From an uncultured Clostridia bacterium (GTDB lineage: Bacteria > Bacillota > Clostridia > TANB77 > CAG-508), in assembly GCA_963556825.1 (NCBI GenBank), contig CAUWAM010000002.1, positions 53,135 to 117,134 of the forward strand: a stretch of DNA of 64,000 nt, given 5' to 3'. This document shows positions 6,724 through 63,065 of the stretch, piece after piece. Positions within the stretch are counted from its first letter, which is position 1, and each line of letters starts with the position of its first letter. The translations under genes were made by a program, and so were the position numbers. The notes below the pieces were generated by a model. The model was given only the letters and a program-made list of their open reading frames with translations, did not search any database and was not told the DNA's origin.

Positions 6724-8918
6724 TTATTTGGTTCTTTTCCATACAAATACAGCTATGTATGGAATTGCATGTGTGTGTGAATTTACACTATGTGTGTGAT
6801 TAGACAATGTATGTGTATGCCCTTTTCCTCCACCAGTAGAACCTGTATTTTCTCTATTGTTTGTATCGACTCCTCCTCTATTGGTTCCTGCTGAATATAC
6901 TCCTGAAATTTTTTTAAACATTGTATGGGTATGTGAAGGTATTTGATCTATTGTTAAAACTGTACTTCCTGTTGTATTTGTACTTGGTCCTCCAGTACTT
7001 CCACTTGATGCGCCTGTGTTTGTACCTGTTATACTAGATTGACCATAACTAGTACTAGCTCCATACAAGAAACCACTTTTTATCCTTTCCCATGTTCCTC
7101 CAAATAAAGTTGATGGATTTGTACTATTTATACTCATATATATTGAACCAACAGGGTATATCTTATTTACTATCGCACTTGCTAAATTTGTTCCTAATCC
7201 TGTAGCATTTATCTTTCCATTTACCTGTAATTTACTTCCTTCATTTGTATCATATTTTTGCCCTATTGCAATATTATTTTTATATACAGCTATTGCTGGA
7301 TTTCCACTTCCTAAAATAATTGTAGTAGTTGTTGTTGATAATTTATCAGATATAGTTAACTTAATATCATAAGAATTAGAAACGTCAAATCCATCTGTTC
7401 CTTTATCTCCTTGAATATTTAAACTACCAGTTATTTTGTTTTCAGAAATAGTATAAGTTAGTGTTGTTTTTCCTTCTATCCAATTTGAATTTGAAGTTGT
7501 TTTATAACTATATTTACAACTTGTAACTGCATTTGCTACACTACCAAAATTCGAATTCCAAAACTCTCCTTCAAATTTTAATGTTGTTATTGTACCAATG
7601 TTATTTTGTCTTGTTGCTGACAATGATTTTATTTTTATATTATTATAATTTTTTATAGTTGCTGTTTTACTTACTTTTGTACTATTACCTCTACTGTCTT
7701 CCGCATATATATCTATAACATTTGTATCTATTGCTGGTATTGACATATTCACATCAGCATTAGAACTATAATTAACATTTGCATTTTTACTTCCTATTAG
7801 CATTTTATAACTTTTCATTGTAGCACTATTTTTTGATACTGCTTTATTTGTTGCACTTATAATTGCCTTTACATTAGAATATCCCTTTACTAATATTTGA
7901 TTATTTCCTGTTAAAGCAGTTATTGTAGTATTTGTATCTTGATATATAAAATTGCTAAATGTCGGATTACTATTTACTACTGTAAACGTAAAATCTTTTG
8001 AATTTGTATAAGATTTTCCATTTTGAGCAGTTGTTATAACATATCTTGCTTTGTATGTATTACTATTAGGTGTTAGTGAGTATATTTTTGCTGCTGTCGG
8101 TGTTATTGATTTGCTTGCACCTATTACTGTTCCATAATCAATAATACTTGTATTATCTGTTTTACATAATTTTAAACTTATACTAGCTCCGCTTGGATTG
8201 TTCCAAGTTATTGTATGACTACTTCCAATATTAACATTAGGCACTGAACTTAATGTAGCAATTTGATGTGTTGTAACTTCTATTGTATTAGACTCACTAT
8301 ATAATTGACTATCTAATCTTTTTACCTTTATTTTAAAATTATATTTAGTATTTGGAGATAATCCAGTTATATTTATTGGAGAAGTTAAGGCATAACCACT
8401 TTCCCAATCTCCTCCATTTTTACTAACCCATATCCCATCTATTGTAGAATCTGATGAATAATTAAGTTTAACACTATTTACAGTCTTTGAGTGTAGAGAA
8501 ATACTTGCTTTCGCATATCTAGGAATTGTAGATAATTGTAAATTTCCACTCGGATAAAAATCACCTGGGGAATATGTATGAGATTGAAAGTCTATAACAG
8601 CACTACAATTATAGTCTTTGTTCCATCAGAATTATGAGCTATTGTCATTGTTCCTTCTGCAAATGTTATTACTCCATTATGTCCTAAACTGTATTGCCCG
8701 CTTCCGTTTTTTACTATATTTCCATTTATTGTTATACTATAACTTGCATTTAATGCACTAAATCTACCAGAATTACCAGAAATTAATTGTAATCTGTATC
8801 CAACATTTGAAGTATTAGAAGCTATGTCATAGCTATTTTCCCAAACACTTAATTTTCCTGTGTAATATTTTGCATATGTACCACCACTACTACCACCATT
8901 TTGTGTAAATTCTGCCAT
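6724..8918 (-). pseudogene. tail fibre / receptor-binding protein (DUF859-like N-terminus, HxH-rich C-terminal tip), frameshifted
   Basis: ORF 8592..8918 (…TIAHNSDGTKTIIVVLL*) continues in the -1 frame, which is open from 8625 to 6724 (…NCSAVIDFQSHTYSPGDF…). C-terminus is GGTWERI…HTHT…GHTHTLSNHTHSVNSHTH. Confidence 0.75.
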
Positions 8919-11834: not shown

Positions 11835-13625
11835 TTAATTACCCACAGTTACTATTGTATTTTTTCCAGTTCTTCTAGTTCTTGAATTTATATAATCTAT
11901 TGTATCATCAAATATTTCTTTTCCTAAATATTGTATTGTTACATGTAATGGTTGTCCATTATTACTATTAAAATCTGATAATACCTCTTCAAATGTATCT
12001 CTCATTATGTTTTGTGGTGTAACAATTTCTGGATTTGATTTAGCTCCTGAGTATTCTCCTGCTATTATTGCTGTTGCTTCTGTTAATACTCCACCTTTTG
12101 CCAATCTTGGTAATGAAATTGTACTTATTTGTAAATTTATAGGGTCTAATCCTATTAAAGAACCTACTGCATTTGCTACACTACTTATTCCTGATAAAAG
12201 TTTATTTATACCTTTTATTGTTCCATTTACAAAACCTTCTATACCACCTAGTATAAAATTGATTACACTTTTTATACCTGACCAAATTCCATTCCACACA
12301 TTGTTTACAACTTTTGAAATAGTATTCCAAACATTAGACCATATTTCTTGAATTTTCCCTAAAACAAATTTTATAGTTTCCCATATTTTATTTATTATCG
12401 GTGAAATAATATTCCATATTCCTTGAAATACTTTTGAAATCAACTGCCAAATCCAATTAAATATTTGAGAAAATATATTCCAAATTGAGTTCAATATTGT
12501 CGATAAAATATTCCAAATCGACTGAAATATTGTTGATATTATTTGCCATATTGCATTTACTATTGGTGATACAATGTTCCATATTGCCTCAAATACTGTT
12601 TTAACTAAATTCCAAATAAATCCTAATATTGTTGATATTACATTCCAAATTGCTTCAAATATGAAGGATACTTGGTTCCATAAATTTGTAAAAAAGCCTA
12701 CTACAGCATCTATTACAGTTTTTACTGTCTTTTTTAACCAGTTCATAATATTATCCCAATTAATGATAGCTACTACAATTAATGCAATAACTACTATTAT
12801 AGCTATTATTTTAAGAATAAATGGTATCATTTTACCATTTAATATCGAAAAAGAATCTGTAAGTATTTCTGTAGCTGTTGACCATATTTTATAAGCGATA
12901 CTCAACACACCTATAGCTATCGCAATTCCTAATATTATTTCTGCTATTATTGGATTTTCGACTACCCATTTTAATATATCTACCATACCACTTAATATAT
13001 CTAATGCAACTGTTCCTATATTTTGTCCTATATTAGATAATGCGTCAACCAATGGTTGCCAATCTATTTCTGCTAATTTTTCTGATATTACCCTGAATTT
13101 ATCTGAACAATTATTTAACCAATCTTGAAATCCTTTACTTAGTACAACATTATTAATTGCTCCTAATAAATTATTAAAAGCTTTTGATAAATTTTGTACT
13201 ATAGCATCTCCATTACCATTATAATTCCATGCAATTGAAAAACTCTCTTCTATATTATAAGCTTCTATCATAGATTTATCAATTTTTGGAGTTATTACAT
13301 TTAACTTAATTTGTCGAGCATTTATTTTTTCTTGTAGACTATCAATTTGCTTTTGTATTTGACTTATTTGATTTTGTGCATTTTTATTGTTTACTTTTAT
13401 TGCTATTTCATTATTTGCAGAACTATTTTTTAAATCTTGCATTTTCTTTTTCATAAAATTAACTGCTTGATGTAATTTGCTTGTCATTGTTTTTGTATCT
13501 ACTTTTGAAAAAGCATCTTGTACTTGTTTTACTATTTTATTTATAGTAGGTACAATTTTCTCAAATTCTTTTAATGCTTTTTCTACTTTTGCTGTTACAA
13601 TAATTTCAATTTCTTCTGTTGACAT
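11835..13625 (-). CDS. tail tape measure protein
   Basis: About 596 aa, with an N-terminal coiled coil, a hydrophobic core and a run of 11-residue W-containing repeats. RBS aaaggagga before MSTEEIEI. Confidence 0.85.
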   Translation of the reverse strand: MSTEEIEIIVTAKVEKALKEFEKIVPTINKIVKQVQDAFSKVDTKTMTSKLHQAVNFMKKKMQDLKNSSANNEIAIKVNNKNAQNQISQIQKQIDSLQEKINARQIKLNVITPKIDKSMIEAYNIEESFSIAWNYNGNGDAIVQNLSKAFNNLLGAINNVVLSKGFQDWLNNCSDKFRVISEKLAEIDWQPLVDALSNIGQNIGTVALDILSGMVDILKWVVENPIIAEIILGIAIAIGVLSIAYKIWSTATEILTDSFSILNGKMIPFILKIIAIIVVIALIVVAIINWDNIMNWLKKTVKTVIDAVVGFFTNLWNQVSFIFEAIWNVISTILGFIWNLVKTVFEAIWNIVSPIVNAIWQIISTIFQSIWNILSTILNSIWNIFSQIFNWIWQLISKVFQGIWNIISPIINKIWETIKFVLGKIQEIWSNVWNTISKVVNNVWNGIWSGIKSVINFILGGIEGFVNGTIKGINKLLSGISSVANAVGSLIGLDPINLQISTISLPRLAKGGVLTEATAIIAGEYSGAKSNPEIVTPQNIMRDTFEEVLSDFNSNNGQPLHVTIQYLGKEIFDDTIDYINSRTRRTGKNTIVTVGN

Positions 13626-13655
13626 TTTTATTCCTCCTTTCATATATTTTTTAAT

Positions 13656-19295: not shown

Positions 19296-21128
19296 TTACA
19301 CTTCCATAATAATTGGTATAATCATCGGATTTCTCTTTGTTTTTACAAATATATAATCTCTTAAATTTTCTCTAACAGTAGACTTAATTGTTGACCAATC
19401 ACGAATTTCTTTTTCTTCACATTTTTTAATTTCATGTCTTACAACACTCTTTACGTCATCCATTAAATTTTCTGATTCTCTAACATATACAAATCCTCTT
19501 GAAATAACATCAGGTCCTGCTACTACTTCCCCTGTTGAAGAGTCCATTGTTAATACTATTATTATTAATCCATCTTGTGATAAATGTTGTCTATCTCTTA
19601 ATACTATATTTCCAACATCTCCAACTCCAAGTCCATCTACTAATACTCTTCCATTTGGAACCATTCCTGTAAGTTTGGCTTCATCTTCACTTATTTCTAC
19701 AACTCTTCCATTTTCCATTAATACGATGTTTTTAGCTGGTATTCCCATACTCTGAGCTGTTTCGGCATGAGCCATTAATTGTCTATATTCTCCATGTACT
19801 GGTATAAAATATTTTGGTTTAGTCAATGCAAAAATTAATTTTTGTTCTTCTTGGCAAGCATGTCCAGATACGTGAACATCTGCTAATGCACTATATACAA
19901 CCTCTGCTCCAATTTGCATTAAATCATCTATTACCTTTGAAACTAGTTTTTCATTTCCTGGGATTGGATTTGCTGAAATAATTACTAAATCATTAGGTGT
20001 TATTTTAACTTTTCTGTGATCTCCTGAAGCCATTCTTGTTAGTGCTGACATTGTTTCTCCTTGACTTCCTGTTGTAATTATTACTAATTGTTCATCATTA
20101 TATGTTGACATCATATCTATGTCAATAAATAAGTCTTCTGGACAATCTATATATCCTAATTCTCTTGCTGTATTTATCATATTTATCATACTTCTGCCAC
20201 ATATTGCTATTTTTCTTTTGTATTTTACTGCTGAATTTACTATTTGTTGAACTCTATGAACGTTTGATGCAAATGTAGCTACTACTATTCTTTTTGTACA
20301 TCCATCAAATAAGTTATCAAATACTGGTCCTATTGAACTTTCAGACATCGTAAATCCTTTTCGTTCAGCATTTGTACTATCTGACATTAATGCTAATATT
20401 CCTTCATTTCCTAATTCTGCAATTCTTCCAAAGTCCATTATTTTCCCATCGATTGGTGTATAATCAACTTTGAAATCACCTGTGTGTAAAACTGTTCCTA
20501 TAGGTGTTTTTATTGCTAACATTACTGAATCTGGTATACTATGTGTACTTCTTATAAATTCTACTTTAAAGTTCTTTCCTAATGTTATTGTTTCTCCTTG
20601 CATTACTTCTATTAGTTTAGAACTTCTTAATATTTTATGTTCTTCTAATTTATTTCTAATTAATCCCATTGCTAGTCTTGGTGCATATACTGGAATATTT
20701 ATTTGTTTTAATATATATGGTACACTTCCTATATGATCTTCGTGTCCATGTGTTATTATTAATCCCTTTATTTTATCTACATTTTTTTGTAAATATGTGA
20801 TATCTGGTATTACTAAATCTATCCCCAACATATCATCTTCTGGGAATGATAAACCACAGTCTACTACTATCATTTCATCTTCATATTCAAAAACTGTTAT
20901 ATTTTTACCAACTTCGTGTAATCCTCCTAATGGAATAATTTTTAATTTTCCTTTTTTGAATATGCTATCTTTGCTTGTTTTAGTTTTTCTTGTTTCTTTT
21001 GTTTCTTTTATATCTCTAGTTTTTCTTGTTGTTTTTGTATTTTTTGTTGCTCCTATATTTTTTCTTGGAGCTCTTGGCTTTCTTTGTGTTTTTTCTTCTT
21101 TCTTTTTGTCTATATTCTCTTGTGTCAT
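19296..21128 (-). CDS. rnj: ribonuclease J
   Basis: Metallo-beta-lactamase HGHEDHIG motif, beta-CASP layout, 610 aa. About 55-aa K/T/R-rich N-terminal extension. Confidence 0.9.
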   Translation of the reverse strand: MTQENIDKKKEEKTQRKPRAPRKNIGATKNTKTTRKTRDIKETKETRKTKTSKDSIFKKGKLKIIPLGGLHEVGKNITVFEYEDEMIVVDCGLSFPEDDMLGIDLVIPDITYLQKNVDKIKGLIITHGHEDHIGSVPYILKQINIPVYAPRLAMGLIRNKLEEHKILRSSKLIEVMQGETITLGKNFKVEFIRSTHSIPDSVMLAIKTPIGTVLHTGDFKVDYTPIDGKIMDFGRIAELGNEGILALMSDSTNAERKGFTMSESSIGPVFDNLFDGCTKRIVVATFASNVHRVQQIVNSAVKYKRKIAICGRSMINMINTARELGYIDCPEDLFIDIDMMSTYNDEQLVIITTGSQGETMSALTRMASGDHRKVKITPNDLVIISANPIPGNEKLVSKVIDDLMQIGAEVVYSALADVHVSGHACQEEQKLIFALTKPKYFIPVHGEYRQLMAHAETAQSMGIPAKNIVLMENGRVVEISEDEAKLTGMVPNGRVLVDGLGVGDVGNIVLRDRQHLSQDGLIIIVLTMDSSTGEVVAGPDVISRGFVYVRESENLMDDVKSVVRHEIKKCEEKEIRDWSTIKSTVRENLRDYIFVKTKRNPMIIPIIMEV

Positions 21129-37844: not shown

Positions 37845-39164
37845 TTAATATTTATATCCTATTATTTTTACAGGAATACAAGTAAAATTAACTTTGTTTG
37901 TACTTCCCCAATAACTTGCTTTAGCTTTAAATGCAGTATAATTTACATATTCAAAATTTCTTTTAACTACTTTGTTCGAATATCCTGATCCTGATATTAA
38001 AGCAAAAGTATAACCTTTATAAACTCTTTGGACCTCATAATCTGGTTCAGTATTATAAAACTTAAATATAACATCAAAATAGTCATAATTGTCATTTGCC
38101 AAATTTATTATTTGTCCTTCCTCAAAAGACTTATATTCTTTATCTGGATTTTCCCATAAAGTTTGTCCTACTACTTGTGAATCTCCTGTTTCTTGTACTG
38201 TCATGTAATTATCAATATAACTTTCATATTTATAGCCTATTATTTTTACAGGAATACAAGTCTTATTATTTTTGCTTGTACTTCCCCAATAACTTGCTCC
38301 AGCTTTAAATGTAGTATCATTTACATATTCAAATTTTCTTCTAGCTACTTTGTTCGAATATCCTGATCCTGATATTAAAGAAAAAGTATAACCTTTATAA
38401 ACTCTTTGGACATAATAATCTGGTTCAGTATTATAATACTTAAATATAACATCAAAATAGTCATAATTGTCATTTGCTAAATTTATTGTTTGTCCTTCTT
38501 CAAAAGAGTTATATTCTTTATCTGAATTTTCCCATAAAGTTTGTACCACTACTTGTGAATCTCCTGTTTCTTGTGCTGTCATGTAATTATCAATATATCT
38601 TTCATATTTATAGCCTATTATTTTTACAGGAATACAAGTCTTATTATTTTTGCTTGTACTTCCCCAATAACTTGCTCCAGCTTTAAATGTAGTATCATTT
38701 ACATATTCAAATTTTCTTCTAGCTACTTTGTTCGAATATCCTGATCCTGATATTAAAGAAAAAGTATAACCTTTATAAACTCTTTGGACATAATAATCTG
38801 GTTCAGTATTATAATACTTAAATATAACATCAAAATAGTCATAATTGTCATTTGCTAAATTTATTGTTTGTCCTTCTTCAAAAGAGTTATATTCTTTATC
38901 TGAATTTTCCCATAAAGTTTGTACCACTACTTGTGAATCTCCTGTTTCTTGTGCTGTCATATAATTATCAATATATCTTTCATAATCATTTAATATTTTC
39001 TCTTCATTTTTTGTTGCATTTTCTGTTGCATTTTTTGCTTGTTTGGCATTTTCAAATAATCCTGTGTTTGTTATTGCTTGTATGCTTATTCCTGCTAATA
39101 TTAACAACAAAATTATTGTTATTACTAATGCTACAAGTGTTATACCTTTACTTTCACTTTTCAT
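37845..39164 (-). CDS. pilin-like-leader surface protein with three 126-aa tandem domains
   Basis: MKSESKGITLVALVITIILLLILAG leader, with RBS ggggga before the second ATG. Followed by 3 x 126-aa repeats. Confidence 0.7.
   Translation of the reverse strand: MKSESKGITLVALVITIILLLILAGISIQAITNTGLFENAKQAKNATENATKNEEKILNDYERYIDNYMTAQETGDSQVVVQTLWENSDKEYNSFEEGQTINLANDNYDYFDVIFKYYNTEPDYYVQRVYKGYTFSLISGSGYSNKVARRKFEYVNDTTFKAGASYWGSTSKNNKTCIPVKIIGYKYERYIDNYMTAQETGDSQVVVQTLWENSDKEYNSFEEGQTINLANDNYDYFDVIFKYYNTEPDYYVQRVYKGYTFSLISGSGYSNKVARRKFEYVNDTTFKAGASYWGSTSKNNKTCIPVKIIGYKYESYIDNYMTVQETGDSQVVGQTLWENPDKEYKSFEEGQIINLANDNYDYFDVIFKFYNTEPDYEVQRVYKGYTFALISGSGYSNKVVKRNFEYVNYTAFKAKASYWGSTNKVNFTCIPVKIIGYKY
37848..38981 (-). 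repeat. 3 x 378-bp in-frame tandem repeat
   Basis: Units are 38604-38981, 38226-38603 and 37848-38225. The first two look identical wherever I compared them at nucleotide level and encode identical protein. The third is diverged. Confidence 0.9.
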
Positions 39165-39494: not shown

Positions 39495-40832
39495 CTACTT
39501 AATATAAAGTACCACACGGAAACCGATGCCATGATGAGTGTGCATAACGGGGCAAACGCCGTAGCGGCGGCACGCAGGATCTCCGCTAGAATTGTCAAGG
39601 TAATCGCCTCCACGAATCACGCGGTATTGACCACTAGTTGCATGATGTGAATCTTCTTCTGTCCACTCCCATAAGTTACCTGCTATATCAAATATATGAT
39701 ATTTCTCTGTTGTTGCACTTGCACCTGTTGTTAATAAATCTCCTTTGTTTTCGTTACTAGTTACATAATCCTTTGTAGTAGATGTTTCTGTACTACCAAA
39801 CACTGGTAAGTACCAATAATTAGAAGAATAATATGCTGTTGCTTTTCTTCCTGTATATTCTATTGCTGTATTCTTATAATTTCCCCAAGAACTACTATTT
39901 GTCATATCAGAACTTGTTAAGTCTGTTTTATTTATTAATGTATTTAATATTACATCCCATTGTGTTCCTGTAATCAAACCACTACTTACATAATTGTTAT
40001 TATACATACTTTCTGCATTTGCTTTTGAATGTGTCCAATCTACAAAGTTCCAAGGTGCTAACCCTGCTTTACTTTGTGGTATTTTATATACATTATATAC
40101 TTGGTTATGTCCTGCACTTTTTTGTGTAGAAGTAAACTCTGACATATCACTCGCAAGTCCTGCTTCATATCTTCCTACATAAAATCCACCATATTTTTCT
40201 ATTTGTGATAATTCTGCTTTTGGTATTGTTGTATCCCATCCAGCATTTTGTTTTTCCCAAGATGTTTTTGTATATGCACTTGTTGAACAAGGTATCCATA
40301 CAAATTGATTTCCTGTTAAACTTGTTGTATATGCATATGTTGTTTTGTCTGTTGTTCCATCATATTTATCTGCTTCATTATCTGATATTATTACACCTGT
40401 ATCAAGATTTCCACCTACATAATAAAATCCGTATGGTACAGGTACGCTTTCTCCACCACCTACTGATACTGCATATACTGTTGCTACTTTTGTAACTTCT
40501 GTTGTTTCTAATCCATTGCTTGTTTTTATATATTTAACTGTTTCCGTTCCCCATTCATTTGGTAATTTTACTATTGTTCCTAGATCTTGTGGATCTTCTG
40601 TCGTATTTTCTGGTAAGTCTTTGTTATACTCTGCTAATTGTTTTTCTAATTCATTCAAACTTTGTTCTTCTGCAATTTGTGCATTAATATATTCTTGTTT
40701 TGCTTGTTGTGCTCTATTTATCAAGCCATTATCCCCCATTAGAGTTGCAATTGTTATTCCTGCTAATATTAACAACAAAATTATTGTAATTACTAACACT
40801 ACAAGTGTTATACCTTTACTTTTATTTTCCAT
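39495..40832 (-). CDS. pilin-like-leader protein with C-terminal FGE/SUMF1 (C-type-lectin-fold) domain
   Basis: MENKSKGITLVVLVITIILLLILAG leader. GGFYVGRYEAG, GNLWEWTEE, RGG…IGFRVV motifs. Confidence 0.8.
   Translation of the reverse strand: MENKSKGITLVVLVITIILLLILAGITIATLMGDNGLINRAQQAKQEYINAQIAEEQSLNELEKQLAEYNKDLPENTTEDPQDLGTIVKLPNEWGTETVKYIKTSNGLETTEVTKVATVYAVSVGGGESVPVPYGFYYVGGNLDTGVIISDNEADKYDGTTDKTTYAYTTSLTGNQFVWIPCSTSAYTKTSWEKQNAGWDTTIPKAELSQIEKYGGFYVGRYEAGLASDMSEFTSTQKSAGHNQVYNVYKIPQSKAGLAPWNFVDWTHSKANAESMYNNNYVSSGLITGTQWDVILNTLINKTDLTSSDMTNSSSWGNYKNTAIEYTGRKATAYYSSNYWYLPVFGSTETSTTKDYVTSNENKGDLLTTGASATTEKYHIFDIAGNLWEWTEEDSHHATSGQYRVIRGGDYLDNSSGDPACRRYGVCPVMHTHHGIGFRVVLYIK
39508..39640 (-). 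other. candidate DGR variable region (VR1)
   Basis: About 56% G+C by hand count over 39511-39630, in an AT-rich gene. 23 of 26 codons between RGG and IGFR are NNY. Confidence 0.4.
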
Positions 40833-40880: not shown

Positions 40881-41990
40881 TTAATCTGATAATTTCAGTT
40901 GAACACTAGACTGAAGAGAAACTAGCGGGCAAAACGCACGATTGTGGTTAAAATTGCTGTAGTCCACATTGTTCACATTGCCCCCCAGAACAAACATCAC
41001 AGCGATATCGTTGCTAGATGAGGGAGATGCTAACCAGTAATATTGGTTACTTCCTGGCCAATACATGCTGTCTATTTGACTATCTGTTTGTACTGTATAA
41101 TTTGATGTATTAGTATAGTATCCATCTACTGCTTTTGAATTTGTTGTAGGACCAACTCCATATCCATAATTGCTACTATTATATGGATATTTATAAAATA
41201 ATCTTGTTCTTGGTGATGTTTCTGTTCTTTCTGTATTATCTGGTGTAGCATTTGTTAGATTATAATGAGTATTGAAACCATCCATCATCATTTCCAAACT
41301 TGGTGCCCCTACTATATAATTTACTTTACTTCCTATTTCTGTACTTGCTCCTGATGTTACTAAACCTTCCCAATTATTTGTATTTGTTAGCCATGTTACT
41401 GCTTTCATATTAGAATTAATAGATTTAGGTGGCGTTACTCCTGGCTTATATAATTCTGGATTTAAATTTCTTATTTTTATATTTTCTGCTGTATCAAAAC
41501 TTATATCTGTCATTGGCAAATTATAATTATTTGAAGTACAATCTGCTTTTAAGTATACTGTTCCTGCTCCATCTTTAAATTTATTGTCAAAATCAATATA
41601 ATATAGTCTATATGTTGTAGAAAATGTATAATTACTTGAACCTACTTCTACACTTTCCGTCCCACCTACGGTTTTATAATTTGTTACCTTTTTTCCTAAA
41701 TATTGTCCAAAGTTATCTTTGGTTAATATTACTTTACTTCCATTTGCTAGTGTTACTTCTACTCCACTTCCGCTATTTCCACCGTCTTGTTCTGTTATAT
41801 AGTCTGATAAATTTGAAAGCATTTGTTCTTCCTCTTGGGCTGTTTTTTTATATTCATCTATAGTTTTTTGGGCTTTAGCGATTATGCCTCCATCTGTCAT
41901 TTTTCTTATTACTACTGCTGACAAAATTAATAATATTACTATTGTGATTACTAACGCTACGAGTGTTATCCCTTTACTTTTATTTTCCAT
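40881..41990 (-). CDS. pilin-like-leader protein with DUF1566-like C-terminal module
   Basis: MENKSKGITLVALVITIVILLILS leader, with ggagg RBS before the internal ATG. C-terminus is YWLASPSSSNDIAVMFVLGGNVNNVDYSNFNHNRAFCPLVSL. Confidence 0.65.
   Translation of the reverse strand: MENKSKGITLVALVITIVILLILSAVVIRKMTDGGIIAKAQKTIDEYKKTAQEEEQMLSNLSDYITEQDGGNSGSGVEVTLANGSKVILTKDNFGQYLGKKVTNYKTVGGTESVEVGSSNYTFSTTYRLYYIDFDNKFKDGAGTVYLKADCTSNNYNLPMTDISFDTAENIKIRNLNPELYKPGVTPPKSINSNMKAVTWLTNTNNWEGLVTSGASTEIGSKVNYIVGAPSLEMMMDGFNTHYNLTNATPDNTERTETSPRTRLFYKYPYNSSNYGYGVGPTTNSKAVDGYYTNTSNYTVQTDSQIDSMYWPGSNQYYWLASPSSSNDIAVMFVLGGNVNNVDYSNFNHNRAFCPLVSLQSSVQLKLSD
40929..41012 (-). other. candidate DGR variable region (VR2), Asn-codon rich
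   Basis: About 47% G+C by hand count over 40921-41030. AAT/AAC/GAC/TAC/AGC/CAC/TGC codon run. Confidence 0.3.
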
Positions 41991-42046: not shown

Positions 42047-42107
42047 TCAAAAAGATAGCAATATTAACTTGCACATGCTTTTGATACAAGTATAATATTC
42101 CTACCTT
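42047..42107 (-). terminator. leader hairpin plus T-run (attenuator-like), copy B
   Basis: Same arms as copy A (42088-42107 and 42052-71), a different loop, and a T5 run following. Confidence 0.4.
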
Positions 42108-42134
42108 TTATTTTATTATTTCTTTTTTTATTTA

Positions 42135-42200
42135 CTAAATTACCTGTGTGTGTGTGTGTGTGTGTGTGTGTACTCCCTCAACGATTATAGCGTTTTTCAT
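42135..42200 (-). CDS. leader ORF copy B, currently truncated by repeat-dependent frame
   Basis: MKNAIIVEGV(HT)4QVI* with (CA)13. The frame homologous to copy A would continue to a TAA at 42064-42066. Confidence 0.3.
   Translation of the reverse strand: MKNAIIVEGVHTHTHTHTQVI
42145..42170. repeat. (TG)13 / (CA)13 dinucleotide microsatellite
   Basis: 26 nt of perfect TG repeat. The homologous position in copy A is a degenerate gcgtgtgtatatgtatat. Confidence 0.95.
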
Positions 42201-42267
42201 CTTTATTTTCCTTTTCTTTTGTTTTATTATTCATATTGAAAACTTACTTCAAAAGTATCTTTTTCAA

Positions 42268-61545: not shown

Positions 61546-62997
61546 TTATTGTTTAAATCTTATTTTATCAATTTCATAATTACTTTTTATTTCTTTTTGA
61601 CTTAATTCTCTGTTATATATTCTTATTGCCCCAAGTTTCATTTGACAAAACAATGCATCTCCTGCTCTAGAACCTAAATATATTGGATAATTTAAAAATT
61701 TGGTATTAGATATATCATAATTGTTACCACTACTCTCATTTAATTTTATGTATTCACTATCTTTATAAAGTTCAATAAATGAATTATATTTTTTATTTGT
61801 ATTTATAATTGCCGTATAAACACTTAATGTTTTAGGTTCAAAAACATTATCTCCAGTATATTTTAAATTATATCCCCTTTCATGATGATATGTAATACGT
61901 ATATTATTAATTCCCCCTTCATTAATAGTAATACCATATCCAGTATTATTTTCATTCCAATTTCTTGAGGATTCAAAAATCATTTGTGTTTTTTGATTAT
62001 CACTTATATCCAACAATACAAATTGAACTGTTATAACATTACTTTCTTTATAATCAACTTCAGATATTGTCTTTGCAAAATCATCAATACCATCAAATGA
62101 TAAATATTTATCCCCCCAGATTGCTCCTGTTATTTGAGCATCATTATTACTTTGACTCAGATCTTTCCATATAGTAGTATCTGAACTATGTTCATTTTCT
62201 CCTAAATTATTTATTGCATCATAAGATAATATAAGACTATCTGAAACATACTCATTATAAAGAGTCATTGACTTCATTCCTAATGAAACTTCATCTCCAT
62301 GAACAACACTTATCGTATATTCTCCTGGCTCATTAATATAAAAAGTTAATTCATTTGAAGTTTCCCAAAAATCATTTGTTATCAATTTATATTTAATCTG
62401 CCAATTACTAACATATCCATCATATTTAATGTTTGATACCTCTACTTTCCACCTATTTCCCTCTTTTTGTGTATTAATTTCAAAACTTCCTGTTTGTGGA
62501 TTTTTATTATTATATTCAACATTATACTGTCCATTTTCTAATTGCTCAGTCATATAATATACTTTATCTTTGTATTCAAAACCAATATAACTAACAACAT
62601 ATCTTTTTTCCACATTAATAAGATATGGTCTTGTTACACTATCTAATTCTAAATTTTCTTTTATCCATTCCTTACTACAATATCTAAAACCATTTTTTAC
62701 TTGTTCTATTTCTTCATTTGTTTTATCTTTATATATAATTTTTTTTATTTCATCTATTTCTAATACTGATATTTGATTATCAGTTAATTTTTCTCCTATA
62801 TCTGTTTTATTGTTTTGATTTAATTCATTCACTTTTGTCTGCATAACTTTTAATTCTGAGGTAAATTCATTATATGCTGCATAATCAATGGCTTGTTTCC
62901 AAGAAATTATACCAACAGATGCTAATATTAATAATATGATTATCATTACAACTAACACCATTAATGTTATCCCTTTTTCTTCTTTTATTTTTTTCAT
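61546..62997 (-). CDS. pilin-like-leader protein with C-terminal LamG/concanavalin-like domain
   Basis: aggagga RBS. MKKIKEEKGITLMVLVVMIIILLILA leader. C-terminal …LSFDGIDDFAKT…IRIYNRELSQKEIKSNY. Confidence 0.7.
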   Translation of the reverse strand: MKKIKEEKGITLMVLVVMIIILLILASVGIISWKQAIDYAAYNEFTSELKVMQTKVNELNQNNKTDIGEKLTDNQISVLEIDEIKKIIYKDKTNEEIEQVKNGFRYCSKEWIKENLELDSVTRPYLINVEKRYVVSYIGFEYKDKVYYMTEQLENGQYNVEYNNKNPQTGSFEINTQKEGNRWKVEVSNIKYDGYVSNWQIKYKLITNDFWETSNELTFYINEPGEYTISVVHGDEVSLGMKSMTLYNEYVSDSLILSYDAINNLGENEHSSDTTIWKDLSQSNNDAQITGAIWGDKYLSFDGIDDFAKTISEVDYKESNVITVQFVLLDISDNQKTQMIFESSRNWNENNTGYGITINEGGINNIRITYHHERGYNLKYTGDNVFEPKTLSVYTAIINTNKKYNSFIELYKDSEYIKLNESSGNNYDISNTKFLNYPIYLGSRAGDALFCQMKLGAIRIYNRELSQKEIKSNYEIDKIRFKQ

Positions 62998-63020
62998 TGG
63001 TTTCCTCCTATACAAAAATT

Positions 63021-63065
63021 GCTTTTTTGCGAGATGCATATATAAAACTCCCAACGCAAAAAAGC
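63021..63065 (-). promoter_or_regulatory. 5' leader hairpin upstream of the LamG pilin-like gene
   Basis: 11-bp perfect stem GCTTTTTTGCG/CGCAAAAAAGC with a 23-nt loop, followed by AATTTTTG on the minus strand. Confidence 0.35.

Follow-up and report, generated by a model that had tools for sequence, protein, structure and literature searches.

Why should a perfect dinucleotide microsatellite lie within a short open reading frame (ORF) in front of genes for pilin-like surface proteins? The question arises from a stretch of 64,000 nucleotides (nt) of contig CAUWAM010000002.1, assembled from an uncultured Clostridia bacterium and hereafter termed the window, in which a (CA)13 tract is found on the minus strand within the leader (leader A) that precedes two such genes. 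The answer proposed here, and considered probable, is that the tract forms the variable part of a repeat-gated leader-peptide attenuator acting as a phase-variation switch. An earlier note on the same DNA had likewise read the repeat as a phase-variation switch, a claim that draws support from the variation in repeat number and from the conserved signals of the leader ORF, with the effect on expression being a prediction; its account omitted, however, a terminator-like hairpin that shows covariation and contains the end of the leader's long frame.

Reading frames of leader A and its fixed paralogue

On the minus strand, leader A reads ATG AAA AAC GCT ATA ATC GTT GAG GGA GTA, followed by (CA)13 and GGT AAT TTA G, and direct reading places a Shine-Dalgarno-like AAGGA (42209-42213) 8 nt upstream of the ATG. 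The (CA)13 microsatellite itself (42170-42145) is a perfect (TG)13 when read on the plus strand, and had been flagged as unusual for this sequence. This is borne out by direct reading, by Tandem Repeats Finder, which reports the tract (42145-42171, period 2, 13.5 copies, 100% matches) as the only period-2 array among 138 rows for the window, and by searches permitting mismatches, in which neither the 26-mer (up to three mismatches, with 0.00 matches predicted from shuffles) nor the 12-mer (CA)6 (up to one mismatch, with 0.14 predicted) had any other match in the window.

The tract begins at codon 11 of the leader ORF, 30 nt after the ATG. With 13 units, the frame opened by ATG 42200 is closed by an in-frame TAG at 42137-42135, such that the window allele carries the short form of the ORF (42135-42200, minus strand), which on direct reading and translation comprises 21 codons, MKNAIIVEGVHTHTHTHTQVI* (asterisks denoting stops). 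When leader A is translated in silico with 8 to 18 units, three outcomes are obtained, depending on the remainder when the number of units, n, is divided by three (n mod 3). Multiples of three (3k, for example 12 or 15) give a long frame reading ...GNLVNKKRNNKIKGRNIILVSKACAS, which closes at a TAA at 42066-42064; 3k+1 units end in ...QVI, and 3k+2 units in ...HR*. Both the early stop with 13 units and the longer frame with 12 or 15 had been anticipated by the earlier note, and the in silico translations agree with it on each. The end of the leader ORF is separated from the start codon of the first structural gene, ATG 41990, by 155 nt in the short frame or by 74 nt in the long frame.

The repeat is positioned outside the structural gene, in a separate ORF, and ends 155 nt upstream of ATG 41990. 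Nor is it found between promoter hexamers, as the promoter characteristic of this leader family ends approximately 45 nt before the leader ATG. A promoter-spacer switch formed by TTGAGG...TAATTT round the repeat was considered and rejected, as the tract lengths give spacers of 23-49 nt and the promoter lies upstream. Small palindromes in the 5' part of the ORF (AACG...CGTT) were also dropped as candidate structure, since they are not kept across the family.

The window contains a second copy of the leader, leader B, upstream of another gene of the same type. Its ORF (39352-39236, minus strand; present on 12 contigs as P0002) had been described as an intact paralogue of 38 codons colinear with the long frame of leader A, and alignment and translation both uphold this description. 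The place of the repeat is taken by a degenerate alternating purine-pyrimidine tract (ATATACATATACACACGCATA, 39325-39305, minus strand), and the ORF is preceded by a promoter at 39428-39399 (minus strand) consisting of TTGACA, 18 nt and a TG-extended TAATAT, with homologues in the related leaders L022 and L024 and in the gut type described below. From this anatomy, leader B appears to have lost its repeat and to have been fixed in the frame predicted to allow read-through, which would be ON under the model set out below. Leaders A and B are nearly identical from around 42240 to the gene start, with 8 nt of difference in the repeat tract and a single 12 nt indel, and such near-identity throughout means that conservation alone is uninformative about coding. 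The earlier argument that this four-codon indel is a sign of translation stands only in part: the indel exists, but its source is a 12 nt tandem duplication in leader A (TTTATTTTATTA, 2.3 copies, 42107-42134), which makes it weak coding evidence on its own.

Repeat number across the leader family

A protein search with both leader peptides recovered five other called ORFs. P0001 corresponds to the 12-unit form of leader A, while L020 and L021, from a related strain, have, at the corresponding site behind tsf, a tract of (CA)3 with identical flanks and different downstream genes. L022 is a diverged leader that has (CA)15 and a promoter of its own, and L023 and L024 are leaders with few or no repeats. 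As a sample obtained in this manner is biased to open frames, metagenomes were scanned with a 19-mer from the 3' arm of the hairpin described below, and approximately 25 of its 60 matches in the metagenome collection are real leaders, mostly from human-gut assemblies. Four groups can be distinguished among them: the CA type; the GA type, in which (GA)n occupies the same codon position, the peptide is unrelated and the leader precedes a gene for a signal-peptide protein; two repeat-poor leaders (L038 and L064); and L069, where the same hairpin (360-480) directly follows the end of a gene and no leader ORF is present. An 18-mer (AAAACGCTATAATCGTTG) searched against genome contigs gave 13 matches, all of them falling by chance in unrelated high-GC sequence or outside any leader; in viral contigs the terminator 19-mer gave two chance matches and no leader; and a look-up of the 369 amino acid (aa) protein encoded downstream of leader A gave no new contigs.

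Every leader of the family has an ATG with GGAG or AGGA 7-10 nt upstream, and all except leader A and L023 are preceded by a promoter of the TTGNCA...TGnTAATAT type. The downstream genes of the family again start KGITLVALVIT, and one of them carries DUF6273. As a separate observation, the L064 leader (1886-1960) contains (AAATAAT)3 between its ORF and its hairpin.

Inspection of the repeat length in related genomes, a check proposed when the tract was first noticed, gave a positive result. Within the window's lineage the tract consists of 13, 12 or 3 units: in kitten-gut assemblies of the window's own strain, 13 units are present on five contigs and 12 on one (L005, which came from a different kitten sample in the same colony). 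Nine human-gut contigs of the CA type, whose flanks share at least 97% identity across about 300 nt, have 8, 11, 11, 13, 13, 15, 16, 16 and 19 units, and L042 and L061 have a common flank haplotype such that their repeat number alone differs (11 versus 16). Similarly, the diverged GA subfamily comprises (GA)11, 11, 14, 18, 18 and 20. The size of these differences indicates that they are not assembly noise, and the tract changes far more quickly than the DNA around it. L029 and L063 harbour an interrupted tract, (CA)5 TA (CA)5, which should slip less. The use of GA in place of CA at the same codon implies that the sequence of the unit is free to change, whereas its length is never a multiple of three, and the occurrence of two dinucleotide units at one codon is sensible only if it is the frame, and not the sequence, that matters.

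Other signals of the ORF also favour translation. The start codon and Shine-Dalgarno sequence are conserved, the frame beyond the repeat is open for 22-27 codons in very AT-rich sequence, and the indels found after the repeat are multiples of three (-12 in leader B, +3 in L028, -3 in L023 and +3 in L024); hence the leader ORF is probably translated. One interpretation of a translated leader is that the function resides in the long peptide (38-46 aa, with a high content of Lys, Asn and Ile), in which case the repeat would toggle a small protein and not the downstream genes. Several assemblies do indeed annotate the ORF as a gene, and protein search finds homologues of it. Yet most substitutions between subtypes alter the encoded residue (a hand count between L025 and L031 gives 2 silent versus 6 replacement codon changes), the conserved K(G/D)RNI segment coincides with the hairpin's 5' arm, leaders of the GA subfamily specify a peptide of unrelated sequence, and no Pfam domain is recorded for any leader ORF, all of which make a functional peptide highly improbable.

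The hairpin beyond the repeat

Beyond the repeat, leader A contains a terminator-like element, element A (42109-42049, minus strand), composed of an A-tract (42109-42106), an imperfect stem of approximately 23 bp extending from G42105 to C42054, and a U-tract (42053-42049), with a counterpart, element B, at 39281-39221 (minus strand) in leader B. Element A, AAAAGGTAGGAATATTATACTT...AAGTTAATATTGCTATCTTTTT, has a predicted fold of -22.5 kcal/mol (z -5.4) and element B one of -17.0 kcal/mol (z -3.8), with none of 200 shuffles folding as well as element A or B, and the substitutions between the two hairpins are located in the loop. The hairpin of element A persists when the whole leader of 251 nt is folded, with the CA tract predicted to be unpaired. 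The hairpin and U-tract are situated around 60 nt before the ribosome-binding site of the surface-protein gene, with no convincing promoter recognised between hairpin and gene on reading the sequence, and no alternative antiterminator structure is evident in the leader folds.

The pairing is conserved through compensatory change. Across 16 distinct hairpins, 92% of cells are paired, versus 39-56% when the partners are slid, and both partners have changed in five of the pairs (17 cells), examples in the upper stem being U-A to C-G and U-A to A-U. The lower 3' arm was fixed by the search pattern, and only the 5' arm and the upper stem were free to vary. None of 500 shuffles matched the hairpins in pairing, in the number of double-change cells or in covariation score, and five double-change pairs were reached by 38 of the 500. 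A covariance model matches element A with 83.8 bits and element B with 82.8 bits, and over 180 kb, including the whole window and relatives without the leader, it matched only leader copies. The sole match in an Rfam scan of the window was a tRNA, with no riboswitch or known leader at gathering score. Its A-tract, stem and run of five U residues give element A the classic layout of an intrinsic terminator, and it looks like one, with termination itself being its putative activity.

The leader frames end at characteristic distances from this structure. The TAA of the long frame falls 43 nt into the 61 nt element, within the 3' arm, and a long-frame stop inside the 3' arm is also found in leader B (39238-39236), in L020, L022, L023 and L024, and in the gut CA type. 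By contrast, the short frames of leader A stop 28 and 33 nt before the element, the overall range being 28-37 nt before the hairpin. A precedent for such an arrangement exists in Streptococcus gallolyticus, in which (GCAGA)n in the leader ORF of pil1 and pil3 sets the position at which the ribosome stops (PMC3894217). Stops at least 28-39 nt before a stem-loop of -18.7 kcal/mol result in low pilus expression, those within or just before the stem-loop result in high expression, and mutants with an altered ATG, inserted stop codons or a deleted terminator behave as the model predicts (PMC3894217). Based on the matching stop distances, the clostridial leaders are read as an analogous, non-homologous attenuator.

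The proposed switch would comprise, in order, a transcribed 5' leader, a small ORF with a Shine-Dalgarno sequence and ATG, the dinucleotide tract at codon 11, an A-rich spacer, a long AU-rich hairpin with a U-tract, and the surface-protein gene. Slipped-strand mispairing would alter the number of CA units, with each unit shifting the frame. For two frames out of three, translation would end 28-37 nt short of the hairpin, which would then form and end most transcripts, leaving the downstream genes OFF or low. With 3k units the ribosome would instead cross the 5' arm and loop and stop in the 3' arm, such that the terminator could not form and transcription would enter the pilin-like genes (ON). 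We infer, on this model, that the hairpin ends transcription and that repeat number sets expression. The 13-unit allele of the window is accordingly the one predicted to be OFF for 41990-40881, and probably for 40832-39495, with alleles of 12 or 15 units predicted to be ON.

That the long frame should be the ON state is suggested by the S. gallolyticus precedent together with the leaders lacking a repeat, as 'locked' leaders (leader B, and L020 with its (CA)3) are in the long frame, which fits this direction. The polarity could be reversed, with short frames ON and the long frame OFF through a stop in the 3' arm that destabilises the transcript or blocks a downstream element, and this would agree with the finding of short frames in 12 of 13 gut CA-type contigs and in five of the six contigs of the window's strain. 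It would, however, leave the slip-resistant leader B and the (CA)3 allele permanently OFF, it has no evident mechanism, and the experimentally dissected analogue of S. gallolyticus works in the opposite way; such a reversal is regarded as improbable.

A further possibility, considered unlikely, is that a switch operates after transcription, with the leader frame altering the stability, processing or ribosome loading of the downstream mRNA. For instance, the hairpin might be a target for RNase III or RNase J, or a stabiliser, that is unfolded by ribosomes with termination unaffected. A long, double-stranded hairpin of around 23 bp would lend itself to such a role, an RNase J1 gene is present in the window (19296-21128), and repeat-dependent processing of a hairpin in the 5' untranslated region (UTR) by RNase III is known for Haemophilus influenzae hmw1A (PMC12721329). 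Against this stand the A-tract, stem and U5 of an intrinsic terminator, a CA tract that, unlike the hmw repeat, is unpaired and outside the hairpin, and a ribosome-binding site that, according to the fold, is about 50 nt beyond the hairpin and not sequestered.

An attenuator would also have to be distinguished from neutral noise, whereby a repeat in a dispensable UTR precedes a hairpin that is simply the terminator of the tsf operon, the ORF having arisen by chance. The hairpin of copy A does follow tsf without a strong promoter between them, the hairpin of L069 occurs directly after the end of a gene with no leader ORF, and the leader peptide is poorly conserved. Noise would nevertheless have to produce long dinucleotide tracts, of two different units, at the same codon of diverged leaders in DNA otherwise without such tracts; leader B and relatives have the hairpin between promoter and gene; and the ATG, Shine-Dalgarno sequence and open long frame are conserved. 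This explanation appears about as improbable as a reversed polarity. The attenuator model predicts an effect with a period of three in the number of units, and this prediction separates it from both the post-transcriptional and the neutral explanations.

A number of observations count against a repeat-gated attenuator. No consensus promoter was found for leader A, transcription of which may depend on read-through from rpsB-tsf. A simple terminator scan did not list the hairpin, presumably because its bulges lie outside the rules of the scan. The leader peptide shows little conservation apart from the segment that is also a hairpin arm, which speaks against translation of the ORF, although poor peptide conservation in combination with an open frame would be expected if it is the act of translation that matters, and not the peptide. 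Of the 13 gut CA-type contigs, just one has the long frame (binomial P of approximately 0.04 by hand calculation, on samples that are not independent), and if the long frame is ON, then most sampled populations are OFF. The repeat-poor leaders L038 and L064, which were found without bias towards open frames, have a broken long frame with stops 8 nt and 26 nt before the stem, which likewise speaks against translation, and the longest frame of the GA subfamily ends 13 nt before the stem, not inside it. The difference between 12 and 13 units in the kitten colony rests on a single 2.9 kb contig, L005, and assemblies provide a consensus, not the heterogeneity within a population. Finally, the RNA polymerase of Bacillus subtilis can outrun ribosomes, which would weaken ribosome-mediated antitermination, although S. 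gallolyticus shows that this mode of regulation can still work in a Firmicute.

Downstream genes, genomic setting and comparable switches

The first gene behind leader A (40881-41990, minus strand) encodes a 369 aa protein with a pilin-like N-terminus (MENKSKGITLVALVITIVILLIL) and has a GGAGG 8 nt upstream of its ATG. The second (39495-40832, minus strand) encodes a 445 aa protein combining a pilin-like N-terminus with an FGE-sulfatase-type C-terminus that has a GC-rich, VR-like end, and is probably co-transcribed with the first, given the gap of 48 nt between them. Behind leader B, a third gene (37845-39164, minus strand) encodes a 439 aa protein with a pilin-like N-terminus and a 126 aa domain present three times, corresponding to three 378 bp tandem copies, 96% identical, at 37848-38984. 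These three inserted genes all start with K-G-I-T-L-V-A-L-V-I-T-I, a hydrophobic, pilin-like N-terminus for which Pfam N_methyl scores 18.3 bits, under its cut-off of 21.2. Matches to PilE1 in the PDB are weak, with E-values from 0.11 to 0.23, and the prepilin-like motif KG/ITLVAL has Ala, not Glu, at +5, as compared with the G/FTLxE type. A fourth gene with the same pilin-like N-terminus is located at 61546-63054 on the minus strand; the region upstream of it is unrelated, containing a tRNA gene, with no leader ORF and no hairpin.

Both genes behind leader A had previously been labelled VR-bearing, a description that the analysis does not bear out for both: the VR-like end is found only in 39495-40832, in which the FGE-sulfatase fold is present. 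Searches of the 64 kb window found no second copy of the VR 3' end (allowing up to three mismatches) that could be a template repeat, nor is any repeat family matching the VR reported there, and no reverse-transcriptase domain was detected in the ORFs scanned, which were not all of those in the window. Five independent assemblies, drawn from three projects, carry the VR-like stretch (39495-39620) with 100% identity. A template repeat and a reverse transcriptase could be located elsewhere in the genome.

The order of genes on the minus strand is rpsB (44073-43270), tsf (43146-42268), leader A, the 369 aa gene, the 445 aa gene, the promoter and leader B, and the 439 aa gene, followed by pyrH, frr, a polyprenyl synthase gene, uppS and cdsA. 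The interval between tsf and pyrH (42268-37600 in the window, 5800-8700 in L020 and 4879-6174 in L089-L098) is a variable cassette site. In the window it contains the three pilin-like genes; in a related strain, genes encoding 524 aa and 191 aa follow the counterpart of leader A with (CA)3; and in human-gut relatives there is a DHH-family gene and no leader. Between pyrH and frr, L089-L096 have 2 to 4 copies of a 9 nt unit, CAAAAAGAA, at around 6930-6990; these copies adjoin the frr ribosome-binding site on its upstream side, in human-gut relatives that are otherwise identical.

Elsewhere, the window encodes a germination protease (Gpr), RNase J1 and RecD2, and YtxC is found beside the region on a matching contig. 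Gpr and YtxC point to a spore-former, and the host is an uncultured, spore-forming clostridial gut bacterium of 26% GC. Its Tsf is 86-87% identical to the Tsf of metagenome-assembled genomes named 'Clostridia bacterium' and 'Clostridium sp. 27_14', and Tsf sequences identical to that of the window are present in the kitten faecal metagenomes of PRJEB4391. Two further features are a minus-strand ORF at 6724-8244, encoding a 506 aa protein with a phage baseplate Gp10 C-terminal domain, and a 33 nt periodic repeat of approximately 5.7 copies at 12372-12662, within a 602 aa ORF on the minus strand (11835-13643).

The leader family comprises both fixed and variable paralogues and uses two repeat units, and its hosts occur commonly in the gut metagenomes of cats and humans. 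The genes behind the leaders encode signal-peptide proteins as well as pilin-like proteins whose C-terminal domains differ. It is conceivable, albeit doubtful, that the leader is a portable on/off cassette, placed in front of many surface-protein genes by an abundant, small-genome lineage of uncultured clostridia in mammalian guts, and superimposed in at least one operon on retroelement-driven hypervariation of a ligand-binding tip; if so, one surface structure would be both stochastically switched and diversified. Ordinary gene callers miss the leader ORF unless its frame is the long one, and so hide regulation of this kind. Metagenomes could be searched by the signature of a small ORF with a ribosome-binding site, a repeat unit that is not a multiple of three and a terminator containing the stop of one frame. 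In organisms that cannot be grown, n mod 3 would provide a read-level marker of the ON or OFF state of a surface structure, and the leader would also constitute a compact and easily tested part for synthetic biology.

If the attenuator model is correct, this is a known but rarely documented type of switch, here with a dinucleotide unit in an uncultured low-GC member of the Clostridia; in the literature searched, repeat-gated leader-peptide attenuation was described for one organism, S. gallolyticus. As in pil1 and pil3, a leader ORF with a ribosome-binding site and a repeat unit that is not a multiple of three is followed by a terminator-like stem-loop and a gene for a surface appendage, with the promoter upstream of the ORF being seen in leader B and relatives and not for leader A. 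The stem-loop energies are comparable (-18.7 kcal/mol in pil1/pil3, -17 to -22.5 kcal/mol here), the distance from stop to hairpin is at least 28-39 nt for short leaders, with long leaders ending within the hairpin or adjacent to it, repeat number differs among isolates, and a single genome has two such loci. In other respects they differ: the sequences are not homologous, CA or GA takes the place of GCAGA, with 3-20 copies in the tract instead of 13-23, and the host belongs to an uncultured, spore-forming, low-GC clostridial gut lineage and not to the streptococci. Furthermore, the regulated proteins have pilin-like N-termini, with an FGE-sulfatase/VR-like C-terminus in one case, whereas pil1 and pil3 specify sortase-assembled pili, and the long (ON) frames are two of three in S. 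gallolyticus but one of three here, as predicted from sequence alone. This suggests that the same logic arose independently in unrelated sequence, with the shortest unit able to shift a frame.

Ribosome-mediated attenuation is also exemplified by the pyrBI leader of Escherichia coli. As in trp and pyrBI attenuation in that species, it is the position of the ribosome on the leader ORF that would decide whether the terminator hairpin forms. Those systems, however, respond to a metabolite by way of stalled ribosomes or paused RNA polymerase, whereas the input here would be a heritable, stochastic change in DNA length, and no antiterminator structure is evident.

Repeats are also found within genes, as in the case of the CT repeats that Helicobacter pylori sabA and oipA carry in their signal-peptide regions, and the CTCTT repeats of Neisseria opa. 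One published account describes repeats inside structural genes switching surface proteins (PMC2715451). Such repeats would have in common with the leader tract slipped-strand mispairing, a unit that is not a multiple of three, a shift of frame and a surface protein turned on or off; here the repeat is in a separate upstream ORF, so that the structural protein is never frameshifted, and control would be transcriptional. Among clostridia, cwpV of Clostridioides difficile is reportedly governed by an invertible switch (Emerson et al. 2009). Like the switch proposed here, it involves phase variation of a clostridial surface protein by the making or breaking of an intrinsic terminator in a 5' leader, although the trigger in cwpV is site-specific inversion of DNA by a recombinase, with no microsatellite and no leader peptide. 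Lastly, in the adhesin gene hmw1A of H. influenzae, a heptanucleotide repeat in the 5' UTR forms one arm of a hairpin that is processed by RNase III, with an effect graded according to length (PMC12721329). The two systems have in common a transcribed repeat in the 5' UTR of a surface-protein gene and a long UTR hairpin, but the clostridial repeat is unpaired and within an ORF, and its effect is predicted to recur with every third unit.

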